Below are positions 12,693 to 24,412 of a stretch of 64,000 nt of DNA, piece by piece (within the stretch, counting starts at the first letter, position 1; every line of letters starts with the position of its first letter). This stretch comes from a virus. The translations under genes were made by a program, and so were the position numbers. The stretch lies in IMG/VR virus record IMGVR_UViG_3300027963_000040; one strand, 5' to 3'. The notes beneath the pieces are model-generated. The model did not search any database. It saw nothing but the letters and a program-made list of their open reading frames with translations, and was not told the origin of the DNA.

Positions 12693-13340
12693 ATGAGCTT
12701 ACAAAAAATAAGATTTAGCGAACTTGATTTTAAATATGATACCGACAGATTATTAAAAGAACTCAATATATTAAAATTTGTTCAATATTTGACTGATGCA
12801 TCAACTCATACTAATCACTATAAAATGCCCATATTCAATCAATCACAAATAAAAAATTGTAAAATTTGGAAAGGTATTAATTTAACAAATCCGCCCGATT
12901 CAGTTTTTATAAAAAATTCTAGTTTGAGCAAAATCCGTAATGAGAATAGCGAACTAGAGTGGGTTTGGGTCAAAGAATTTCCTTACATGCAATATATAGT
13001 CAAGAGTCTAGGTTTTTTAAAAACAAATCTTGTAAGAGTTCTTGTTTTAGAACCCGGATCTATCGGTCCCGTTCACAACGATAACTCTACTGGATCTTAC
13101 TATAGTGTTAACAGAACGTCGATAACTCTTAACATAAGCGATGGCGGAAGCCCATTGGTTTTTTTGAACGGAAACGAAATTCATAGTAAGATGCCTGGTC
13201 CTACATTTCTATTTAGAGATGATTGTTGGCATGGGATTCCGGAAACCAAAACACAAAGGTTTCAAGTGAGAATAAACGGAATGATTAACGAAACTGTAAA
13301 TAAATTGTTATTACAAAATACAATTATGGAGATTATCTAA
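12693..13340 (+). CDS. 2OG-Fe(II) oxygenase, aspartyl/asparaginyl beta-hydroxylase-like
   Basis: Cupin strand VRVLVLEPGSIGPVHND (HxD), distal WHG and RFQVRING. Confidence 0.75.
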   Translation: MSLQKIRFSELDFKYDTDRLLKELNILKFVQYLTDASTHTNHYKMPIFNQSQIKNCKIWKGINLTNPPDSVFIKNSSLSKIRNENSELEWVWVKEFPYMQYIVKSLGFLKTNLVRVLVLEPGSIGPVHNDNSTGSYYSVNRTSITLNISDGGSPLVFLNGNEIHSKMPGPTFLFRDDCWHGIPETKTQRFQVRINGMINETVNKLLLQNTIMEII

Positions 13341-14200
13341 TGAAAATTTACCTTGATCAAGTTCCCGACTCTTTGACTGTTATGGGACACATAAAAGCGA
13401 CAACGGATTGGAACAAAGCTTGCGAATCTGTTAAGCCGAAAACAAAAACACATCAATATGAATTCATTATACAGGATTTTGATCAACAATCAATCTTTAA
13501 TGCAATTCAACATAGCCTTGCAATCTATGGAGAACATGGCTGGAAATCTTCTGAAGGCGAATCAAAAGATTATGTCGGATTCAGTCTTGTTTACAATCCA
13601 GATCATCAGGAGTATTCGAATCTTCATAGTAGCACTCTTGGAACCTCTAAAAATCAAAAAAATCAATTTTTTTGGGGTAAAACAGAAACTCATACAAAAT
13701 TAAAAAATAGTTATTTCGATACGCTCGGATTTAATAAACAAACTCCTGCTAGTCAGTTTGATGCGCTCGGAAAGTTTCTTTCTAGAAGAAAATGTCAAAT
13801 GATACGAGGAAGATTATCTTCTATAGATGGTACACAAATAGAAAATACATCTGTTGGCTGGCACAGAGACGAACCCGTATTTGAAAATTTAAGATTGAAC
13901 GTGCCAATTGTTACTACGAAAGATTACCTATTTCAGATGGAAGGTAAAGAACCTTGTCATCTTGAAGTCGGTAAAGCATACAGCTGGGATACAAATACGC
14001 CTCATAGAGTTTTTAATACAAAGTGGTCCGAAACGAAACGGACACATCTTGTTATAGGTTTCAGCCCTTGGTTAAATTATAACGAAAAAGAACGTTATTG
14101 GGAATCAAATGAATTTTATGGAAAAAAACATCCATTTGATATGCTGATAGATGAAGATGTGTTCGCCGGTCTAGATTATAATCAGATGTTCCATTCGTAA
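13340..14200 (+). CDS. 2OG-Fe(II) oxygenase, aspartyl/asparaginyl beta-hydroxylase-like
   Basis: WHRDEP (HxD), LRLNVPIVT, HLEVGKAYSWDTNTPHRVF and RTHLVIG; TAATG coupling to the upstream oxygenase. Confidence 0.78.
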   Translation: MKIYLDQVPDSLTVMGHIKATTDWNKACESVKPKTKTHQYEFIIQDFDQQSIFNAIQHSLAIYGEHGWKSSEGESKDYVGFSLVYNPDHQEYSNLHSSTLGTSKNQKNQFFWGKTETHTKLKNSYFDTLGFNKQTPASQFDALGKFLSRRKCQMIRGRLSSIDGTQIENTSVGWHRDEPVFENLRLNVPIVTTKDYLFQMEGKEPCHLEVGKAYSWDTNTPHRVFNTKWSETKRTHLVIGFSPWLNYNEKERYWESNEFYGKKHPFDMLIDEDVFAGLDYNQMFHS

Positions 14201-14610
14201 CGATGTGCTGTCGGTTCAATACCGAGGCTTTTAAAATTCTCAATCATTTCAGGTGAAGCGAGTAATGAAACGATAGTTGTCAAACGTTTCACACCAAGTT
14301 CTTTTAATGCGTCAATAGCCATCTGACGTGTCGTGATTGCAATTCTTTGTTCTCTATATTCCGGTTTCACATAAGTCAAATTAGAGTCGTAAAACTCCGA
14401 CGTGATTTTATGATAAACCCTAATTCCTACTGGAACATCATCAACTTTTAGTAGGAAAAAAATGCCATTCGTAACATTGATATGAGGAATTTCTGGAGCT
14501 AGAGCTCCTTTTTCCATTAATTCTTTCCAGGAATCTCCCCAAAAACCAGCAACAATACCGAAACGTTCTTTATTTTCTTCTGGTTTTACTTGTTCAATTG
14601 TAATATTCAT
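14182..14610 (-). CDS. GNAT-family acetyltransferase
   Basis: Acetyl-CoA motif A-like YVKPEYREQRIA; 142 aa with a GNAT-like pattern. Confidence 0.7.
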   Translation of the reverse strand: MNITIEQVKPEENKERFGIVAGFWGDSWKELMEKGALAPEIPHINVTNGIFFLLKVDDVPVGIRVYHKITSEFYDSNLTYVKPEYREQRIAITTRQMAIDALKELGVKRLTTIVSLLASPEMIENFKSLGIEPTAHRYEWNI

Positions 14611-14623
14611 TTAAATCTCCAAT

Positions 14624-16036
14624 TTACTTTTTTGCAACTGTTGGAATTGCTTCTTCTCTAATCTGCGGTACTAATTGCTCAATGCCTCTAATTTTACCCC
14701 ACAAATCTTGTCTATCTTCTGGTAGCTGATAATCTTCATCAATAGCAGTAATCTTGTAAGGAAGTGCTCCGGTAGCGGCTTCTAACGCAATAGCAAAGAA
14801 TGGAAGATGATCCGAGTAAGCTGCATCACAAGACAACTTGAAATACTCTCCTTCAAGAAACATACAGGAACCTTTACATACCTGTAATAGAGGACACTTG
14901 GCGCAATCATCTCTGAACTTCCAATGCGTCGATGTATTCAATTTCACATTGGCTAATTGATTAACATGCCCAATTCTATGAGACTTACCATTCGGAGCTT
15001 TTGAAACAGCCGTGACATTCTGACAGGTGAGCACATTGCCCTGAAGATCAACAGCCATGGTATCTTCTTGATCCATACCACACTTCTGACCTAAAGTGTC
15101 GGCTGATCTGTAATTACCCCAGCTATTAAGCCATTCTTGAACTCTTTGTTTGACAATGATGAAACGATTAATATCATTATTACGGATCGCCATCAAAGTA
15201 GTCATTCTATGACCTACATGTTCTTCATCACCTTGTGGCACATTTTTTTTACCACCTTCATCATATACATCGATGAATCCACCTTCACCGATCATGAAAT
15301 TGCTCTGTGGATTTAAATTAAACAGATCCTCAAAGAATGTCTGAATACTAGCGCGATCCATGTTTTCGCGATGCACCATTGAATTGATGCTGATTCTACC
15401 TTCAGGAAGGAAGCGATTGAATAATTTAAACAAGATTTTTCTTTGAACTGGATCTTCAAACGGATCTGGACCTCTTACATTCTGACCTGGACCATCGTGA
15501 GATACAGCCATGCTAAAACCCATGTCATACAACCAATCAATGATTTCTTCTGTGATCAAAGAGCCGTTAGTAATAACCGAAAATTTTGTTTTTGGATATT
15601 TTTCACGAAGACGTTCAGCCAATGGCTTCATGATCTTCCAATACACAAAAGGTTCACCACCCCAGAATTCAATTTTCTCTGGTGGGATCTTAAGCCAACT
15701 GTCCATGTTATTGATAAATCGATCCATCAATTTTGTATTCGAATGATCGATGTTCGGTACAAATCTTTGAGAACAATATTCACAAGAGTAGTTACAAGAA
15801 AGACCCATCTGAATCTTCAGAAGTTTAATGTCCGACTTACTACCTGGAGTATTGACTGAGATTGGCTTTACAGCATCGTTTGACTTTTGAGACCATACCG
15901 GTTTGATGTTAACCAATTTGTTCTTAGAATCAAAAATCTCAGAAGTCATATTATCGTAAATATAACTTACTTGATCCAATTTTTCAATTTTGTTATCAAC
16001 AAAAACTGGTTTGGTACATTCTAATAAAAATTTCAT
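14624..16036 (-). CDS. Radical SAM enzyme with SPASM domain (peptide/protein maturase type)
   Basis: CNYSCEYC (CX3CX2C), FWGGEP, ITNGSL and SHDG; C-terminal C...C...CAKC-X5-C-X3-C-X11-C. Confidence 0.93.
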   Translation of the reverse strand: MKFLLECTKPVFVDNKIEKLDQVSYIYDNMTSEIFDSKNKLVNIKPVWSQKSNDAVKPISVNTPGSKSDIKLLKIQMGLSCNYSCEYCSQRFVPNIDHSNTKLMDRFINNMDSWLKIPPEKIEFWGGEPFVYWKIMKPLAERLREKYPKTKFSVITNGSLITEEIIDWLYDMGFSMAVSHDGPGQNVRGPDPFEDPVQRKILFKLFNRFLPEGRISINSMVHRENMDRASIQTFFEDLFNLNPQSNFMIGEGGFIDVYDEGGKKNVPQGDEEHVGHRMTTLMAIRNNDINRFIIVKQRVQEWLNSWGNYRSADTLGQKCGMDQEDTMAVDLQGNVLTCQNVTAVSKAPNGKSHRIGHVNQLANVKLNTSTHWKFRDDCAKCPLLQVCKGSCMFLEGEYFKLSCDAAYSDHLPFFAIALEAATGALPYKITAIDEDYQLPEDRQDLWGKIRGIEQLVPQIREEAIPTVAKK

Positions 16037-16064
16037 TATATATTTCCTTTATATCATTCACTAT

Positions 16065-16484
16065 TTATTTACACTGACAATTACAATCACATGCACAATC
16101 GCATGCACAAGCACAATTACAATTACAGTTATTGGTAACAACACCATATGGATTGCAATTATAAGTGCAAGCACAATTGCAATTGTATTGAAGCCAATAT
16201 CTACCGTCACAATTTGCACAATTTACATTATAACAATTTAGACAATTAACACAATTAGTTGGAAAATCGCATGCACAATTACAATTACAGGCACAATTTC
16301 CATTATTACAATTACCGTCATTGTTTTTCTGATACCATTCTTTATTATGAGAAGTGTTCAAATCCCAACCACGTTGACCATCTTTTGTATTATAATAGAT
16401 GTCTGACATAGCAAACTGACCACCTGCGCCAATAACAGAGCGCACGTCACCAAAAGATATTGTTCCTGAAGTAGGTGTTCCCAT
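16065..16484 (-). CDS. Asn-Cys repeat protein (25 Cys), candidate rSAM substrate/fibre-tip protein
   Basis: N-terminus MGTPTSGTISFGDVR; all 25 Cys lie in the last ~81 aa; ends CQCK. Confidence 0.8.
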   Translation of the reverse strand: MGTPTSGTISFGDVRSVIGAGGQFAMSDIYYNTKDGQRGWDLNTSHNKEWYQKNNDGNCNNGNCACNCNCACDFPTNCVNCLNCYNVNCANCDGRYWLQYNCNCACTYNCNPYGVVTNNCNCNCACACDCACDCNCQCK

Positions 16485-16505
16485 ATCAATTTATTTCCGA
16501 ATTAT

Positions 16506-16913
16506 TTATTTACACTGACAATCACAATTACAATTACAATTACAATTGTTTTGAACACATTGTGAAGCATTGCAATTATACGGTCCGCAATTTCCATCAT
16601 TACAGTTATTTTGTAACCCATAACCACCGCAATTGATACAATTAACATTTCCTGCATAAACACAATTTTGACAATTTTGTGGGAAATCGTAGCAATTACA
16701 GTTGAAAGTACAATTGCCGTTATTACAGTTGCCTTCGTTGGTCTTGTTGATATAAGCTTTACCGTAATAGTTACTCATAGCATAAGATTGTTGACCAGGT
16801 CTGGTGTTATTGTAAACATAAGCCATATCGATGATTGTACCACTGGCGCCACCGCCATTGATTTCAACGTGAATATCATTTAAGCTTAAAGGACCACTGC
16901 CCGGTAACGTCAT
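16506..16913 (-). CDS. Asn-Cys repeat protein (18 Cys), paralogue of the preceding ORF
   Basis: N-terminus MTLPGSGPLSLNDIHVE; shares GNCNNGNC, DFPxNC, LQxNCN and CQCK; starts immediately after the stop of the S74 fibre gene. Confidence 0.8.
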   Translation of the reverse strand: MTLPGSGPLSLNDIHVEINGGGASGTIIDMAYVYNNTRPGQQSYAMSNYYGKAYINKTNEGNCNNGNCTFNCNCYDFPQNCQNCVYAGNVNCINCGGYGLQNNCNDGNCGPYNCNASQCVQNNCNCNCNCDCQCK

Positions 16914-16914
16914 G

Positions 16915-18180
16915 TTAAATTCTCTTTTCTAGTTCTTCAACTTTAGCGGAAAGCTCTTTGATGGCTTCAATTAACAACGGCACAATCTTTTCATACTGAA
17001 CCGTTTTATAGTTTTCGCCTGATTTAGAGACATATGTATCCTCATCTATATATTCTCTATCAAATGGAGCCATCTGCACTGCTTCGGGAAGAATTGCTTC
17101 AATTTCGTGAGCAATAACACCAACTTGTTTGCTTTGATCTTTATAACCAAAACCTGCGGCAGTATCATTGCTATTGAATGTCACACCACGAATTGCTTTG
17201 ACTTTATTCAGAGCATCTGGTATTAGAGTGATATTGGTTTTTAATCTTACATCAGAGTAATAAGCAATGATGTTACCCGAAGTATGTGTTTCACCTGAAG
17301 TGTAAGTCGAGCGAGTGAGAACAATATGAGCGCCATCCCAATAACTTGCAACCGCAAGGGTACCTTCGTAATATACTGGACCAACAACACCGCTTGATTG
17401 CACATAGCCATTGAAATCAAACCTGTCACCACCATTGAAGTATAATCGCCTGTCGCCATTTCCAAATACTACTTGTCCTGTGCTACCACTACTTATGTAG
17501 GTACGAATTGACCCCGTTACCCCGATGTCAGAGGTAAATGTATCACCTGCTCTATTTGCAGGTGTATAACCCAATCTTGCTGGAATGTTTGTATAATAAG
17601 ATGATAGCTGTCCGCTAAAATAAGTTGCATTGTTAACAGTGCCATTAATTGCATTAGAATAAGCAGTTGCAGAATTGCCAGTGATTTGACTTTGAATTGT
17701 AGCAAGAGTTACGCCGCCATGATATGTGCTATTATTAGAAGTTAACGTTGCAACGTTAGCCGATAAACCAGCTGTAGTTTGATAGAGTGCAGCAGAATTA
17801 GCAACAGCATTACTGTAGGCAGAAGCAGCATTACCAGTGATCTGACCTTGAACCGTTGTTAATGTCAACCCACTAAAGTTATTTGAATTATTAGCAGTAC
17901 CTTGATAGATTGTGGAATTGACTGTAACACCAGAAAGTGATAATTGTCCACCAGTAATACTTGTGTTAACAGTAGCATTACCAACAAAATATGATGATGT
18001 ACTTATTGTGACGTTAGCACCAACCACAATTGATGTGGTAGCATTAGCTGTTGCTGTATTAACGGATGTTGCATTGAGTGATGTTGCAGTGATGACTGAT
18101 GCATTGACTGCAGTTGAATTAGCTGTGAAGTTTCCGTTGACGGTTAGCCCGTTCTTTACTACGAAATTGTTATTTGCCAT
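16915..18180 (-). CDS. Tail fibre with C-terminal intramolecular chaperone (peptidase S74-type)
   Basis: YYSDVRLKTNI, VGVIAHEIEAILPEAV and YEKIVPLLIEAIKEL coiled coil. Confidence 0.88.
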   Translation of the reverse strand: MANNNFVVKNGLTVNGNFTANSTAVNASVITATSLNATSVNTATANATTSIVVGANVTISTSSYFVGNATVNTSITGGQLSLSGVTVNSTIYQGTANNSNNFSGLTLTTVQGQITGNAASAYSNAVANSAALYQTTAGLSANVATLTSNNSTYHGGVTLATIQSQITGNSATAYSNAINGTVNNATYFSGQLSSYYTNIPARLGYTPANRAGDTFTSDIGVTGSIRTYISSGSTGQVVFGNGDRRLYFNGGDRFDFNGYVQSSGVVGPVYYEGTLAVASYWDGAHIVLTRSTYTSGETHTSGNIIAYYSDVRLKTNITLIPDALNKVKAIRGVTFNSNDTAAGFGYKDQSKQVGVIAHEIEAILPEAVQMAPFDREYIDEDTYVSKSGENYKTVQYEKIVPLLIEAIKELSAKVEELEKRI

Positions 18181-18213
18181 CTCAGTTCCCTATCCCTTGA
18201 GATTGTTTTTTAC

Positions 18214-18221
18214 TATTTATA
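18214..18221 (-). promoter_or_regulatory. T4-type late promoter TATAAATA heading fibre, Cys-rich ORFs, rSAM and GNAT
   Basis: Exact consensus about 33 nt upstream of ATG 18180. Confidence 0.8.
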
Positions 18222-18591
18222 CCCAAGGTAAAGCTTTAGGCAATATAGGATTTTTTAAAAGATTTAATTTTTTTTGCAATAATTCATTAATTTTATCATC
18301 CGGAGACAATGCATATTTTTCGCCAGGCATTTGTCCAGGTATAGTTTTTGCTGTAATTATACTTTTAATCCATGACACAATAAGATCTTTGTTTAGTTCG
18401 TTAAATGGTACATAATCTTGCGGTAGAACATCGACAGCGGTGAATTCAGTTTCGCCATCAAAAACGACTGTATTACCATCTTCGTCGATTGCAATTTTTT
18501 TCCAATGAATTAACACAACAGCATCAGGATGATCCGGTGATTCATTTCTTACATATAAATTAGTAATTTCCCAATCATATTTTATCGTCAT
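18217..18591 (-). CDS. Fibre-associated hypothetical protein
   Basis: MTIKYDWEI...YVPFNELNKDLIVSWI...LPW pattern, typical of small proteins next to fibre genes. Confidence 0.65.
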   Translation of the reverse strand: MTIKYDWEITNLYVRNESPDHPDAVVLIHWKKIAIDEDGNTVVFDGETEFTAVDVLPQDYVPFNELNKDLIVSWIKSIITAKTIPGQMPGEKYALSPDDKINELLQKKLNLLKNPILPKALPWV

Positions 18592-18594
18592 TGT

Positions 18595-20424
18595 TTATTC
18601 TTTCTGTAAGAGTTTTAACTGTTTTTTCAAATCCTCAACTTCACCAAGTAGACCTTTTACAGCCTCAACCAAAACTGGTATTAGTTTTTTTTCATCTACT
18701 GTTAAGTATGGGTCTTCTGGATCATAATTGATGTCATCTTTCGGTGTGAGCGTCCCATCAGCTTCTTTATTTTTATATTGTAACAACTGAACTGAAGCTG
18801 CTTGAGGTAATACTGCTTTGACTTCTTGTGCAATAAGACCTATCTGCACACCAGGCTCGGTATTCTCTAATATTTTGTTGCCAATATCATTCCATTCGAA
18901 ACGATAACCGTTAAGACCATTAATGATATCACGCCAATCATCAATCTTTTTTATATTCTTTTTGAGGCGTCTATCTGACCAATAAGCTATGATATTACCT
19001 GTGGCATATATATTACCGCCTGCTTCAAATAGCCAACGTGTTACATCGTCTTGTGTACGAAAACCATGAGACCACTGATTTGACGCACCACCTCTATAAT
19101 ACGAAGTGTCACCATAAACAAAATTCAATCGTGCCCAGCCTTCAGAAGAATAATTCCAAGTTCCAGTATTAAGGTTTAAATAATTTAATCGTGACTGTCC
19201 ATTTGGATTGCAATAATACCCAGTGTCATCACTATCGTAGAATATAGGAGCTCTTAATGAACCACCCGCCTGAAGAAAAGCGCTCGTCTCAAAGTTAGTG
19301 CCATTAAAGTATAGATAGTTACCGCCGTTACCAAAATAATAAACACCAGTAGTTGGCGAGCCAGGTCTATAAGCATTTACATCGCCTGCAACATGAAGCT
19401 TATATGTCGGTGAAGTCACACCAATTCCCGTGTTACCATTAGAATCAATACGCACGCGTTCAGCATTATTTGTAGCAAAAACCAATGTTCCATCAGCTGG
19501 TGAAAACATTCCACCGTCAGTATCATTGGTGCCAAAAGAATATCCAGCAACACCCGTTCCATAAGTTGCACCACCCAAAGCCCTGATACCACCATTCACA
19601 TCAAGTCTTGCGGTTGGTGAAGTTTGATTGATTCCCATATTACCACTAGAATCAATACGCACACGTTCAGCTGATGATGTATACAAACTTATGATTCCAT
19701 TGGCAGCACTTCCAAGTTGCCCAATATGCATTACCATATTATTTGCAATAGAAAACATTCTGGGATTATTTGTACCAGCAACATCAACATATAAGCCCAC
19801 GGTTGTATTGTCTGGGTTTAGAAAATTTATTTCTCCACCTTCGCTGCTGCCGCCATTTAAGAATGTACCAACACCATCAGTTTTACTACCACCAACTACA
19901 TGCAATTTACCAGTGGGAGATGCCGTACCAATACCTACGTTACCATTAGCAACAAAATAAGCTGAAGTTCCAATAGTGAATGTGTTAGTAGAAGAGCTAT
20001 TAGCAAATGTGGCAGTGCCTTGGTAAATTGTAGAATTAACGGTTACACCTGATATAGAAATCTGACCTGCAGTTATATTTGTATTTACTGATGTATTGCC
20101 GACATAATGCGTTGTAGCATTGATAAATGAATTTGTACTAACATATAAAAATGAGCTAGAAGATAAAGTGACATTGCCAGACACATTAGCGGCGCCAACA
20201 ATATCAAGTTTTGCTGTAGGAGATGCAGTACCAATACCTACGTTTCCATTAGCAACAAAATAAGCTGAGGTTCCAATTGTTGCAACATTGGTCGTTGTGG
20301 TCAAATTAGCCGAATTAGCAGTACCAACAGACATCGATGTAATAGCAGTCGCATTAGCGGTTATGCTATTATACATAGCATTTGCTATAAAACCAAAATT
20401 TGAGAGATCATTTGTAATAGTCAT
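18595..20424 (-). CDS. Tail fibre with GNVGIGT repeats and C-terminal S74 chaperone
   Basis: GNVGIGTASPT and ERVRIDSxGN repeats; YWSDRRLKKNI; GLIAQEVKAVLP. Confidence 0.88.
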   Translation of the reverse strand: MTITNDLSNFGFIANAMYNSITANATAITSMSVGTANSANLTTTTNVATIGTSAYFVANGNVGIGTASPTAKLDIVGAANVSGNVTLSSSSFLYVSTNSFINATTHYVGNTSVNTNITAGQISISGVTVNSTIYQGTATFANSSSTNTFTIGTSAYFVANGNVGIGTASPTGKLHVVGGSKTDGVGTFLNGGSSEGGEINFLNPDNTTVGLYVDVAGTNNPRMFSIANNMVMHIGQLGSAANGIISLYTSSAERVRIDSSGNMGINQTSPTARLDVNGGIRALGGATYGTGVAGYSFGTNDTDGGMFSPADGTLVFATNNAERVRIDSNGNTGIGVTSPTYKLHVAGDVNAYRPGSPTTGVYYFGNGGNYLYFNGTNFETSAFLQAGGSLRAPIFYDSDDTGYYCNPNGQSRLNYLNLNTGTWNYSSEGWARLNFVYGDTSYYRGGASNQWSHGFRTQDDVTRWLFEAGGNIYATGNIIAYWSDRRLKKNIKKIDDWRDIINGLNGYRFEWNDIGNKILENTEPGVQIGLIAQEVKAVLPQAASVQLLQYKNKEADGTLTPKDDINYDPEDPYLTVDEKKLIPVLVEAVKGLLGEVEDLKKQLKLLQKE

Positions 20425-20615
20425 TGATTATTACTTTCTTCTGCTGGCTTGATAATAAGATCGTCAGATTCAACTAATTGCATGATGTTGGCGTAGTCAG
20501 TGTTGGCTGGGTCGATGGGCACAGATGAAGTAACGCCATTGATATCGACCCTTATGCCGCCAATTGTTGACGTGCCTAAAATGCAATAATATTGCGCGTT
20601 TGTGTATTTCTGCAT
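20421..20615 (-). CDS. 64-aa fibre assembly/chaperone-like protein (copy 2)
   Basis: Starts at MQKYTN (20615); VPIDPANTDY motif; near-identical C-terminal half to 21640..21834. Confidence 0.75.
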   Translation of the reverse strand: MQKYTNAQYYCILGTSTIGGIRVDINGVTSSVPIDPANTDYANIMQLVESDDLIIKPAEESNNQ

Positions 20616-20617
20616 TA

Positions 20618-21643
20618 TTAAAGCTCCGCTGCAAAAGTTAAATAAGTAGTCGAATCTATTGTAGAAAATGCAAACCCGGCTGGAACAGACACTGCCGCAA
20701 ATCGCATTGCCATTGAACCGCTGCCCGCAAATATTGATGGAGTTCCAGATATATTCCCTGCCGTCCATGTACCAACAATTGTTGCAGTTGGATTTGCTCT
20801 CATTGTTGCTGGATAAGTCAATGTTAAAGTGCCGTAGTTACCCGAAGTGGCATATCCAGCAAAATAAATATCAGCAGCCGTGTTGCCGCCAAGCTTTAAA
20901 AAATACCGCTGGCACAGCATCAACGTCTCGCCAATCGGCAGCCGCTCAAATGGAGTAGCTACACTACCAGCTTCTAGTTGAACATTGCCAATTGTCCAGG
21001 TTCCGGAAGTCTGCGCGCCCACCGTCAGCACAATCTCAATCCCGGTTGTGGCTGCGCTCGGGACGCTGACAGAAGCTGTGTAGTTAGTGACGGTGCTAGT
21101 CACGGTAAACGTGCCGGTGGCAATCTGCGTGCGCGTGGGGCTTGCTAACGTGCCAAAGGTATCAGCCGTATTGGCGTAGTAAGCCGTCCATGTCACTGTA
21201 GTCAGCAGCGAGTTTGCCAGATCAACGCTAAAGGTTGCCGTGCCGTTGTTTAGATCATAACTATTGATAGCCTCAACTCGCTGACCAAAACCGATTGCAG
21301 TAACGCTCGCCGCTCCTGTGAACCTGTAACGATACTGATCGATACCAGAACCAGCAACACGTTGCCCTGTTACGTTAGCTCCAGTACAATAACCATAGAA
21401 ACGATCCACGCTGTAGGCTAGAGCAGCTGCAGCAGTAAATGTTTGCGCCGATCCAGCATTGCGCTGGTCAACAGCCATACCGCCATTAATGATTCTATTA
21501 CGGCGATATCCATTTGTTAATGTTGGTAATACCGTAGTACCATTGATTGTCATTCCAGTCACTGCAGTATTATTAGCAGTTATGCTATTATATACAGCAT
21601 TAGCTATTGTAGCTACCTTGGAAAGACCTACTGAATCAGTCAT
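20618..21643 (-). CDS. Tail fibre/receptor-binding protein (RRNRIING domain)
   Basis: RRNRIINGGMAVDQRN...QLEAGSVATPFERLPIGETLMLCQRY; paralogous to the C-terminal half of 21837..23957. Confidence 0.8.
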   Translation of the reverse strand: MTDSVGLSKVATIANAVYNSITANNTAVTGMTINGTTVLPTLTNGYRRNRIINGGMAVDQRNAGSAQTFTAAAALAYSVDRFYGYCTGANVTGQRVAGSGIDQYRYRFTGAASVTAIGFGQRVEAINSYDLNNGTATFSVDLANSLLTTVTWTAYYANTADTFGTLASPTRTQIATGTFTVTSTVTNYTASVSVPSAATTGIEIVLTVGAQTSGTWTIGNVQLEAGSVATPFERLPIGETLMLCQRYFLKLGGNTAADIYFAGYATSGNYGTLTLTYPATMRANPTATIVGTWTAGNISGTPSIFAGSGSMAMRFAAVSVPAGFAFSTIDSTTYLTFAAEL

Positions 21644-21834
21644 TGATTATTGCTTTCTTCTGCTGGTTTGATAATAAGATCACCAGATTCAACTAGTTGC
21701 ATGATGTTGGAATAGTCAGTATTGGCTGGGTCAAGTGGGACAAACGAAAGCACTCCATTGATGTCAACAGAAATACAAGTCACGATACCGCTGTATTTAT
21801 CTGTAATATATTGAATATTAGTGTATGTAATCAT
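21640..21834 (-). CDS. 64-aa fibre assembly/chaperone-like protein (copy 1)
   Basis: VPLDPANTDY motif; follows the RRNRIING-domain fibre. Confidence 0.75.
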   Translation of the reverse strand: MITYTNIQYITDKYSGIVTCISVDINGVLSFVPLDPANTDYSNIMQLVESGDLIIKPAEESNNQ

Positions 21835-21836
21835 GA

Positions 21837-23957
21837 TTATAACTCCGCTGAAAGAATACCAGGACCTGAGTAAACTAGAGGTTGACCAATTGTACCAGCA
21901 TTGGATGTTGAAGTACCGTCAAATTTTATTCCTTGATTGTTTATAGAAATATTTGCAACAGTTGCTGTCACACCTCCAAAACCAATAAGTTGAAAAGATG
22001 TTGAAGTTCCACTAAGAGTTGGAGCTGCGCGCATTGTCCCAGGAAACTTAAAAAATGTTGCCCCGGCATTAGTACTATACATGGTTCCCACCGGACCAAA
22101 CTCCCCAGAATTAGGCAGCACATTGCAATATCGCTGACATAACATTAGCATCTCACCAATCGGCAACCGTTCAAATGGTGTGGCTACACTACCAGATTCT
22201 AGTTGAAAATTACCAATAACCCAAGTTCCAGAAGTCTGAGCACCTACGGTAAATACAATCTCGATACCAGTTGTGGCTGCAGCTGGAATACTAATTGAAG
22301 CGGAATAATTTGTCACTGTGCTTGTGACAGTAAAAGTTCCTGTTGCAATTTGTGTGCGTGTAGGACTTGCTAGCGATCCAAATGTATCCGCTGTATTTGC
22401 ATAATAAGCAGTCCACGTCACTGTTGTTAATAATGAATTTGATAAGTCAACACTTAAAATGGCTGTGCTATTATTTAAATCATAGCTATTGGAAGTTTCG
22501 ATACGCTGCGCAAAACCAATTGCTGTAACACTTGCTGCACCAGTAAACTGATAACGATATTGTGTTGTACCAGAACCAGCAACACGCTGACCTGTTACGT
22601 TAGCACCAGTACAATATCCATACCATCGATCCACACTATATGCTAAGGCTGCTCCTGCAGTAAAAGTCTGTGCTGAACCAGAATTGCGCTGGTCAATTTG
22701 CATTGCACCATTGATGATTCTATTACGTCTGAATCCACCAGTACTTGGATATACAGAATTGCCATTCATTGAAATAGCAGCTGCAGTAATATTTGTGTTT
22801 ACAGTTGAATTGCCAACAAATGCAGAAGTTGCATTGACAACAACATTTGATCCAACTAAAAGAGAAGCATTGCTGACTGATAAGTTAGCAGTGAAACTTA
22901 GTGTATTAGACCAAGTGTATTGAGCTGTTGTATTGATTGCAGCAAGTGAAACCGAATTATATCCAACAACATCGACGATATCATTTGATAAAGCTGCAGC
23001 AGCAAGAACAACAGTTGAACCATTTGTTGCTGTTACTTCAGTACCATTGATTAGCTTCACACCATTCTTGTATACGTCAATATAGTTAACAGTATAACCG
23101 CCAGTTATAGTAAATGATGTATTGACAGTGGAGTTAGCCGTGAATGTTTGTCTGACATAAGTTGCTCCACTTATAAGTGATCCAACACCTTGATAACCAA
23201 ACACATCAACAACTTGACCATTCAATGGAGCAGTAGTAAAGTTAACAGTTGAACCTGAAGTGACAGTCACATCAGATCCGGGAACTTGTTTTACACCACC
23301 GACAAAAACTTCAATAGCAGAAGGTATGTAACCGCCAGCTATGGTGAAAGTATTACTAGTGCCGTTAGCTGTAAACTGTTGAGATATGTAAGAAGAATAG
23401 CTATATGATCCGGTACTAAGTGTACCAGCATTGAATGCAACAACATCAATAACTGTATTACTTGGTGCAGCAGCAGCTAAAGTAACAATGCTACCACTTG
23501 TTACATCAACATCGGTGCCATTGATTAGTTTTACACCGTTCTTGTAAACATCAATATAACCGGGACTATATCCACCCACTATTGTAAATGTCGTATTTAC
23601 CGTAGCATTAGCAGTGAATGTTTGTCTTATAGAACTAGCACCCGATGAAGAGCCCCAATAAACACCAGATCCATTTGATGTTAAAATCTGATTAGCTGTT
23701 CCAGTAGAACCATTTGCAATCAATCTTTGCGAATTACCGATAGCAACTGTTGTTGTATTAACCGTAAAACGCGAAGTTGCATTACCAACAGCAATAGTTG
23801 TATTGTTCGATCCAATTTCGAAAATACCAGTAGCGTTAGCCGAGAATAAAATTCCGTCAGTAGTATTGATAGCAAGCTCTCCGGAAGACACTGTTGTTGT
23901 CGTTGGACGAGTACCACTTACTGCATTTCTTCTTAGCTGAAAGACTGTATTAGCCAT
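21837..23957 (-). CDS. Tail fibre with Mtd-like N-terminus, three ~75-aa repeats and RRNRIING domain
   Basis: FQLRR...GELAINTTDGILF N-terminus; three xQxFTAN...GGY...I(D/E)V(Y/F)xxGVK repeats; likely start MANTVF at 23957. Confidence 0.82.
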   Translation of the reverse strand: MANTVFQLRRNAVSGTRPTTTTVSSGELAINTTDGILFSANATGIFEIGSNNTTIAVGNATSRFTVNTTTVAIGNSQRLIANGSTGTANQILTSNGSGVYWGSSSGASSIRQTFTANATVNTTFTIVGGYSPGYIDVYKNGVKLINGTDVDVTSGSIVTLAAAAPSNTVIDVVAFNAGTLSTGSYSYSSYISQQFTANGTSNTFTIAGGYIPSAIEVFVGGVKQVPGSDVTVTSGSTVNFTTAPLNGQVVDVFGYQGVGSLISGATYVRQTFTANSTVNTSFTITGGYTVNYIDVYKNGVKLINGTEVTATNGSTVVLAAAALSNDIVDVVGYNSVSLAAINTTAQYTWSNTLSFTANLSVSNASLLVGSNVVVNATSAFVGNSTVNTNITAAAISMNGNSVYPSTGGFRRNRIINGAMQIDQRNSGSAQTFTAGAALAYSVDRWYGYCTGANVTGQRVAGSGTTQYRYQFTGAASVTAIGFAQRIETSNSYDLNNSTAILSVDLSNSLLTTVTWTAYYANTADTFGSLASPTRTQIATGTFTVTSTVTNYSASISIPAAATTGIEIVFTVGAQTSGTWVIGNFQLESGSVATPFERLPIGEMLMLCQRYCNVLPNSGEFGPVGTMYSTNAGATFFKFPGTMRAAPTLSGTSTSFQLIGFGGVTATVANISINNQGIKFDGTSTSNAGTIGQPLVYSGPGILSAEL

Positions 23958-24412
23958 TAGCTCCAATCATCTTTCTTTTTATTTACTTTTTTCTCTTCGC
24001 TTGGAATTTTTTGATGTGAATCAAGTAGTGTTTGATATTCAACTTGAAGTTTTTGATAAGCATCATTCACCAAATTATAATTATTCATATGCTCTTCATA
24101 GTTCTTTTCGATCTTGTCACATTTTTCTTTCAGATCACCAAGAGCAATGATTTCATCTCTATACCTTGCATGTTCATCACGATAGGTATCTCTTTGAATA
24201 GTCGTAGCTTCAAGACCAGCTAGAAGTTGTGTGACTTGTTCAGATAGAGTAAAATTTTTATCTGTCTCTTCTCTGATGGAAGTATCTTTTGCTTTTAATG
24301 AATCATTAAGCAGAGAGATTTTAGCCTCAGCTTCAAGACATCTTCTCATAACATCAATGATAAATGTTTCTTGACATTTCATGTAAGACAAAGTAAATTT
24401 TTCATCAGTCAT
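23957..24412 (-). CDS. Coiled-coil hypothetical protein
   Basis: Heptad-rich, 151 aa; GGAG SD. Confidence 0.7.
   Translation of the reverse strand: MTDEKFTLSYMKCQETFIIDVMRRCLEAEAKISLLNDSLKAKDTSIREETDKNFTLSEQVTQLLAGLEATTIQRDTYRDEHARYRDEIIALGDLKEKCDKIEKNYEEHMNNYNLVNDAYQKLQVEYQTLLDSHQKIPSEEKKVNKKKDDWS

Follow-up and report, generated by a model that had tools for sequence, protein, structure and literature searches.

The locus described here raises the question of what two small cysteine-rich proteins do between a phage tail fibre and a radical SAM enzyme, and whether they are substrates of the enzyme, parts of the fibre, or both. The window, a stretch of 64,000 nucleotides, comes from a freshwater T4-like phage contig with 41% GC and carries the cassette on its minus strand. 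The order on this strand is a tail fibre of 421 aa with a C-terminal S74 chaperone (16915..18180; PF13884, E 1.5e-13, and tail-fibre PHROGs), the Cys-rich proteins A (16506..16913; 135 aa) and B (16065..16484; 139 aa), a radical SAM/SPASM enzyme of 470 aa (rSAM; 14624..16036) and a GNAT-like acetyltransferase (14182..14610; phrog_1249, and PF00583 at 19.3 bits, which is below the cut-off). The stop codon of the fibre lies 1 nt ahead of the ATG of A, and a second S74 tail fibre of 609 aa, recognized by Pfam and PHROG matches, is found at 18595..20424 on the same strand. Comparison of the DNA from 14000 to 21000 with 50,697 phage records revealed no close relative, the sole match being 123 nt of the rSAM gene, to Ralstonia phage RSP15, and tblastn of A against cultured phages likewise gave no match. 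Searches of Pfam and NCBIfam with A and B found no family, with no Pfam hit to either protein at E<=0.01 and no S74 domain (PF13884) in either.

Both proteins consist of a Cys-free N-terminal module followed by an Asn/Cys-rich domain. In A, the module, named here for its 'LPxSGxIS' motif, spans aa 1-58 (16740..16913) and the domain, with its conserved Cys columns, spans aa 59-135 plus the stop (16506..16739), while in B the corresponding parts are aa 1-55 (16320..16484), which diverge from the family consensus, and aa 56-139 plus the stop (16065..16319). The first Cys is residue 63 in A and residue 59 in B. Fifteen of the 18 Cys of A are directly preceded by Asn, two by Gln and one by Asp, and 16 of the 25 Cys of B are preceded by Asn, six by Ala, two by Asp and one by Gln. 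When each Cys-rich tail was shuffled, the observed number of NC dipeptides was reached in none of 20,000 shuffles. The blocks GNCNNGNC, DFPxNC, LQxNCN and a terminal CQCK are common to the two proteins, and a 20-nt word comprising the last codons, the stop and 3 nt beyond is identical in both genes (16062..16081 = 16503-16522). The Asn-Cys counts, the Cys-free N-termini, the common blocks and the repeat had been described in an earlier note on this DNA, and each number given there was reproduced.

The earlier note had also read the 20-nt repeat as a sign of duplication. The repeat is exact, being the longest exact match between the two genes, whose overall nucleotide identity is 62%, and BLASTP identifies A and B as homologues (E 2e-14). 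Their amino acid identity of 39%, or 50% in the family alignment, does not exceed what each shows to other lineages. A recent tandem duplication can therefore be rejected in favour of an old one or of an acquisition of B, and the 20-mer could stem from a 3' end that the two genes have in common or that has been homogenised. Each protein has a 97% identical counterpart elsewhere, A as an orthologue in L008/L030 and B as a protein on another contig of 59.8 kb (P0041). The further suggestion that the two paralogues match the two S74 fibres one to one failed on locus L001, where both fibres have an orthologue (87% and 78% identity) but there is a single Cys-rich gene.

We then asked how widely this architecture occurs. 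Residues 1-62 of A used as a query retrieved close relatives from lake metagenomes with the same architecture and synteny, their gene order being S74 fibre, Cys-rich gene, rSAM, GNAT and then the gp13 neck gene. A search with B yielded at least 203 related clusters within the 76-244 aa range alone, none of them named and with S74, in fused forms, as the sole Pfam domain. Judged by sequence comparison, A and B are members of a large, widespread and unnamed phage protein family of two modules, an N-terminal 'LPxSGxIS' module of ~55 aa and an Asn/Cys-rich domain of ~75 aa. In the latter, Cys is conserved in 16 columns, the Gln of a W/Y-L-Q motif is invariant, and the blocks NCNCG, xCxNC, (V/I)NCxNCD, NCNCACTYNC and GNCNNGNC recur along with a terminal (xC)n run, a pattern that marks it as a conserved domain and not as low-complexity sequence. 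Among 78 distinct cores, Asn occupies the position directly before Cys in 67% of cases versus 21% expected (z=45) and the position three residues before Cys in 33% (z=13.7), while position -2 is depleted of Asn. We know of no described precedent in ranthipeptides for Asn at -1 of Cys, the arrangement that dominates in the phage family. The number of Cys is even in 50 of the 78 cores and odd in 28, which neither proves nor excludes disulfides. In the AlphaFold2 (AF2) model of A, the Cys domain has no confident fold (pLDDT below 50).

The enzyme encoded beside these proteins is a member of both the radical SAM family (PF04055, 42.6 bits vs a gathering cut-off of 29.5) and the SPASM family (TIGR04085, 33.2 bits vs 27), and matches phrog_1802 with an E of 2.5e-58. 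C81, C85 and C88 of its CxxxCxxC motif (aa 81-88; 15773-15796) are invariant in 35 rSAM homologues, as are seven Cys of the SPASM region (C319, C338, C378, C381, C387, C391 and C403; aa 319-403, 14828-15082). At the N-terminus, F3 and Y27 are invariant and D28 and N29 near-invariant. The AF2 model (pLDDT 88.4, pTM 0.89) has three beta-strands in residues 1-35, no helix before residue 101 and no winged-helix RRE, and its nearest folds are anSME and CteB, followed by SuiB, ChlB and TigE. The best partial NCBIfam matches, namely PapB, geopeptide, nif11, QhpD, CcpM, SCIFF and CefB, are maturases of Cys-containing peptides. Family membership was rejected for the PapB-type maturase (NF047865, 65.9 bits vs a cut-off of 340), the SCIFF maturase (TIGR03974, 40.3 vs 425) and the CrpC family (TIGR04463, 33.4 vs 525, the RRE also being absent from the model). 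Because the scores fall far below every equivalog cut-off, the chemistry of the phage enzyme cannot be transferred by membership.

To assess how closely the enzyme and the Cys-rich family are associated, 77 IMG/VR loci with a family member were fetched through the GNCNNGNC block. This revealed an rSAM homologue on the same strand as the family gene in 74 of the 77 loci, and in the other three a contig edge lies within about 210 nt of the family gene. The two genes are mostly adjacent, usually with a few to 55 nt between them in either order, and their maximum spacing is about 2.4 kb. The rSAMs of the paired loci fall into 31 clusters at 80% identity, with 34-79% identity between clusters, and the phages concerned include T4-like, SU10-like, jumbo and other types, indicating that the pairing has been kept over a long divergence. 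The same pairing occurs in L001, L004, L022, L025, L026 and L029, and a reverse search starting from the rSAM recovered the same partners. A degenerate DNA pattern search also found the cassette in two cellular assemblies, a Polynucleobacter isolate contig and a Hyphomicrobiaceae MAG. The former (L117; Polynucleobacter sp. JS-Safj-400b-B2, 28.7-kb contig, about 277x coverage) carries an S74 fibre, a family gene and an rSAM in this order, and may derive from a phage or prophage that infects Polynucleobacter, which would offer a clue to the host range of the cassette.

This gene context strongly supports the Cys domain as the substrate of the co-encoded rSAM. We weighed against this the possibility that the domain binds metal or Fe-S clusters, or is knotted purely by disulfides, and that the rSAM acts on another residue or on another substrate such as the fibre. 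The (xC)n runs and a Cys content of about 25-30% do resemble metallothionein-like binders, an even Cys count prevails among the cores, and RSP15 has an rSAM with no Cys run at all. A near-obligate and mostly adjacent pairing over 31 divergent lineages is nevertheless hard to explain in this way, no Pfam metal-binding family matches, and the nearest enzymes to the rSAM, both in sequence and in fold, act on peptide Cys. We therefore consider a metal-binding or disulfide-knotted domain unlikely.

If the Cys domain is the substrate, characterized enzymes suggest what its modification might be. The closest parallel is CrpC of Methanococcus voltae, a SPASM rSAM shown experimentally to introduce ranthionine cross-links into the Cys-rich protein CrpA, whose N-terminal domain aids enzyme engagement and is shared by the paralogue CrpB (Dieter et al. 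2026, PMC13692751). As in the phage cassette, a SPASM rSAM lies beside a Cys-rich protein, not a short peptide, with an N-terminal domain and a C-terminal Cys region, and there are two paralogous substrates with a common N-terminus. Unlike the phage enzyme, CrpC is a TIGR04463 member with an RRE; unlike the Asn-Cys pattern of A and B, CrpA has 17-residue repeats with CxxQ/D motifs, and the system is archaeal with no link to virions or fibres. Phages are not mentioned in that paper (PMC13692751). The rSAM/SPASM enzymes of PapB/PapA (freyrasin), NxxcB/NxxcA and CteB/CteA (SCIFF) likewise make thioethers from Cys to side-chain carbons: NxxcB bonds Cys to the beta-carbon of the Asn three positions before it, PapB forms six Cys-Asp links, and QhpD cross-links Cys to Asp/Glu in a protein subunit (PMC8326336). 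PapB is the best NCBIfam match of the phage rSAM, CteB is among its best fold matches, and the Asn acceptor of NxxcB at -3 has a counterpart in the enrichment of Asn at -3 in the phage cores. Unlike the phage proteins, the substrates of ranthipeptide enzymes are short secreted peptides, and the equivalog cut-offs are missed widely. QhpD/QhpC resembles the phage pair in that the rSAM/SPASM enzyme cross-links a structural subunit of a larger assembly, and TIGR03906 gives a partial match, although the phage rSAM reaches only 55.5 bits against a cut-off of 453 and QhpC differs from the phage proteins in being bacterial and periplasmic, with a cleaved leader and a dedicated protease. From the precedents of CrpC/CrpA, NxxcB, PapB and QhpD we infer multiple intramolecular thioethers in A and B, with Asn as the likely acceptor.

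Other genes at these loci may contribute further modifications. In the window, an AspH-like oxygenase of 286 aa (13340..14200, plus strand; weak PF05118) is preceded by a second putative oxygenase of 215 aa (12693..13340, plus strand), for which no homologue was found in related loci; the two coupled genes (12693-14200) converge on the cassette. Homologues of the AspH-like gene adjoin the rSAM in L025 and in RSP15, L029 has a weak PF05118 match of its own, and further AspH-like copies lie <=3 kb away in several IMG/VR loci. Beta-hydroxylation of Asn/Asp in the Asn-rich domain is thus a possible second modification. The GNAT gene was found only in the closest relatives of the window (L001, L002, L004 and L008). 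In several lineages an unnamed protein similar to ORF047 of RSP15 is encoded between substrate and rSAM (L007:9901-10716, which is RSP15 ORF047 itself; L025:7252-7995; L069:6993-7700; L046:6394-7281; L059:7688-8581; L010:3232-3990), and this gene is absent from the window. RSP15 (L007; NC_030948.1 39516-42543) carries the rSAM, with 49% identity to that of the window, the AspH-like and the ORF047-like genes in its tail-fibre region, and a search of its whole genome for a Cys-rich protein gave out-of-frame chance matches alone. Cys runs are therefore not a necessary substrate of this rSAM clade.

The second part of the question concerns the fibre. The earlier note had described the N-terminus as fibre-associated, and we examined this with a profile of the N-terminus and by inspecting neighbours of its homologues. 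For residues 1-56 of A, AF2 predicts a small helical fold (pLDDT about 80-88). A search of 1.84 billion representatives with the profile returned 34 matches, all aligned from residue 1, about two thirds of which have the same Cys domain. Among the relatives are Cys-free proteins with C-terminal domains of the Gly_rich_2 or Lcl_C type or of unknown type, and hhalign aligned the module to the N-terminus of these Cys-free proteins over 52 columns with 98.7% probability (E 2e-16). The context of the Cys-free genes was inspected in eight cultured phages. In four, from four families (RSP15, phiKSUM, PhiImVa-1 and Pasto), the gene starts at or overlaps the stop of a gene annotated as tail fibre, and two more have a fibre context, within a fibre cluster in Lentibacter phage ICBM1 and after a probable fibre in PSTNGR1; VH7D is an exception and Astolliot is unannotated. 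In the Fusobacterium phage phiKSUM, about 2.8 kb separate the Cys-free protein and its fibre from an upstream gene annotated as radical SAM (L108:1-656). Among the family genes themselves, an S74 fibre ends <=13 nt upstream in 13 of the 21 clusters in which the family gene lies ahead of the rSAM, and the PHROGs most often matched by upstream neighbours belong almost entirely to the tail-fibre class. Both hhalign and its position at the fibre stop place A with the fibre-coupled 'LPxSGxIS' proteins. The fibre association was thus borne out for a separate, Cys-free module common to fibre-tied proteins, with Cys-free homologues mostly in fibre context among the eight phages and VH7D running counter to it, and these results lend circumstantial support to a role of the module in docking to the fibre.

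The same module had been proposed to act as the recognition leader for the enzyme. The idea is weakened by gp028 of Achromobacter phage JWF and by a short ORF in L013, which keep the Cys run and the enzyme without the module; conversely, the module occurs widely without any rSAM. By analogy with the N-terminal domain of CrpA (PMC13692751), it may nevertheless serve both as a fibre dock and in enzyme engagement.

A gp38-like character, also suggested before, fits the position of A and B but finds no counterpart in sequence. Like gp38 of the T2/S16 type and tail-fibre assembly proteins, they are small proteins encoded behind a fibre, conserved towards the N-terminus and variable distally, and some relatives of the module carry Gly-rich domains. 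Pfam searches with 32 N-modules at E<=10 gave chance matches alone and no GP38, a PDB profile search with the module gave one chance match (E 1.5), the Cys-free relatives contain no GP38 (PF05268) at E<=1, and a BFVD fold search with the model of A found nothing at E<=0.001. The leads from this Foldseek comparison include proteins annotated as gp38, as weak and non-significant matches (E about 0.3-1). Membership in the gp38 family was rejected on these grounds, and gp38, unlike A and B, has neither a Cys-rich domain nor a maturase. The position directly downstream of fibre genes is also the classical one of tail-fibre assembly proteins, and A and B could be assembly factors absent from the virion, chaperones of the Tfa or T4-gp38 type whose N-module binds the fibre tip transiently. 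We regard this as very unlikely, given that no Caudo_TAP or GP38 match was found and that autoprocessing by S74 or Hint domains of their own, together with a dedicated maturase, typifies end products and not chaperones.

These self-cleaving domains bear on where the Cys domain resides. Besides the stand-alone form of 125-173 aa seen in the window, the family has three others: a common form of about 215-230 aa with a C-terminal S74 intramolecular chaperone (e.g. P0024), a form that ends in a Hint domain, the first Cys of which comes after the last residue of the (xC)n run, and a form of ~300 aa, which we call type X, whose C-terminal domain of ~165 aa has a hydrophobic stretch at its end. Self-cleavage is common to S74 and Hint domains, and S74 is a hallmark of trimeric fibres. 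Among the matches listed, about 17 of 120 homologues have a C-terminal S74 of their own and about 10 have a Hint domain. JWF gp028 (L132:2793-4244) is a fibre of 483 aa whose body terminates in NCNCDCNCNCSC with a Hint domain directly behind it, and the rSAM encoded two genes downstream (gp030) is 43% identical to that of the window. In this layout a genuine fibre carries the Cys run at its distal end.

Type X accounts for about a third of family members and differs in context, none adjoining a fibre. In the type X loci (L078:3095-6903, L087, L014, L036 and others) the rSAM is always upstream and no S74 fibre is nearby, and several lineages, amounting to 6 of the 31 rSAM clusters, have FA_desaturase-like genes of membrane type, one or two of which lie between or beside the type X gene and the rSAM. 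An ESM Atlas search with the type X C-terminal domain returned unnamed viral clusters, below 0.9. These members look membrane-associated, unlike a virion tip.

The absence of a recognisable fibre neighbour for type X, L015 and L029, and the presence of a leader and a Cys-rich core beside an rSAM/SPASM enzyme, as in SCIFF, CcpA and CrpA, would suit a released product akin to a RiPP, in which the N-module is a leader, the core is modified, cut and set free at lysis to act as toxin, as signal or in metal chelation, and the proximity to fibres merely reflects late co-expression. Such a product is improbable in our assessment: the supposed leader is a folded module common to fibre-coupled proteins that have no rSAM, the fusions to S74 and to fibres put the Cys domain on proteins of the trimeric fibre type, and the loci examined showed neither a protease nor an exporter, a result that speaks against a secreted RiPP while not proving a location in the virion.

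Taken together, our analysis favours, with moderate confidence, a reading of A and B as fibre-tip proteins that are matured by the rSAM, probably through thioether cross-links by analogy with CrpC/CrpA. The N-module would anchor the protein, most likely to the fibre or the baseplate, and the rSAM/SPASM enzyme would act on the Asn/Cys-rich domain as its dedicated substrate. Many of the Cys thiols could then enter intramolecular thioether cross-links of the ranthionine type, as the CrpC/CrpA, PapB, NxxcB and QhpD systems suggest, with the beta-carbons of neighbouring Asn residues as candidate acceptors, while the AspH-like oxygenases and the GNAT might add further modifications. This would give the fibre a rigid distal knob, resistant to reduction and to proteases. 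As a more tentative generalization, which we hold to be slightly less likely than not, many phages may harden the host-binding tip of their fibres in this way, using an rSAM/SPASM enzyme, often together with oxygenases, to convert an Asn-Cys 'ladder' into a thioether knob, possibly Asn-hydroxylated, that is anchored by the N-terminal adaptor or exposed by Hint or S74 cleavage.

Radical SAM thioether chemistry is known for small secreted peptides, QhpC and, since 2026, one archaeal protein, and full-text literature searches turned up no publication on Cys-rich phage fibre proteins linked to an rSAM. If our reading is correct, enzymatic cross-linking would join the known repertoire of virion maturation, bringing a RiPP-type class of post-translational modification to virion proteins, and a gene pair found in hundreds of environmental phage lineages would be explained. 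Asn at -1 of Cys would then represent a new, previously undescribed rule of recognition or acceptor choice, and the modified domain a compact, genetically encoded and reduction-resistant scaffold for phage engineering and peptide chemistry. The N-terminal adaptor should be useful as a marker for unannotated genes of fibre accessory or tip proteins.

Small genes also lie behind other fibres in the window. A DUF7936 protein of 124 aa (18217-18591, minus strand) is encoded directly behind the 609-aa S74 fibre, the same position that A holds behind the 421-aa fibre. Two small minus-strand ORFs (20421-20768 and 21640-21834), nearly identical in their C-terminal ~30 aa (…DPANTDY…IIKPAEESNNQ), each follow a fibre-like gene (20618-21643 and 21837-23966, respectively), and these two fibre-like genes have a similar core.
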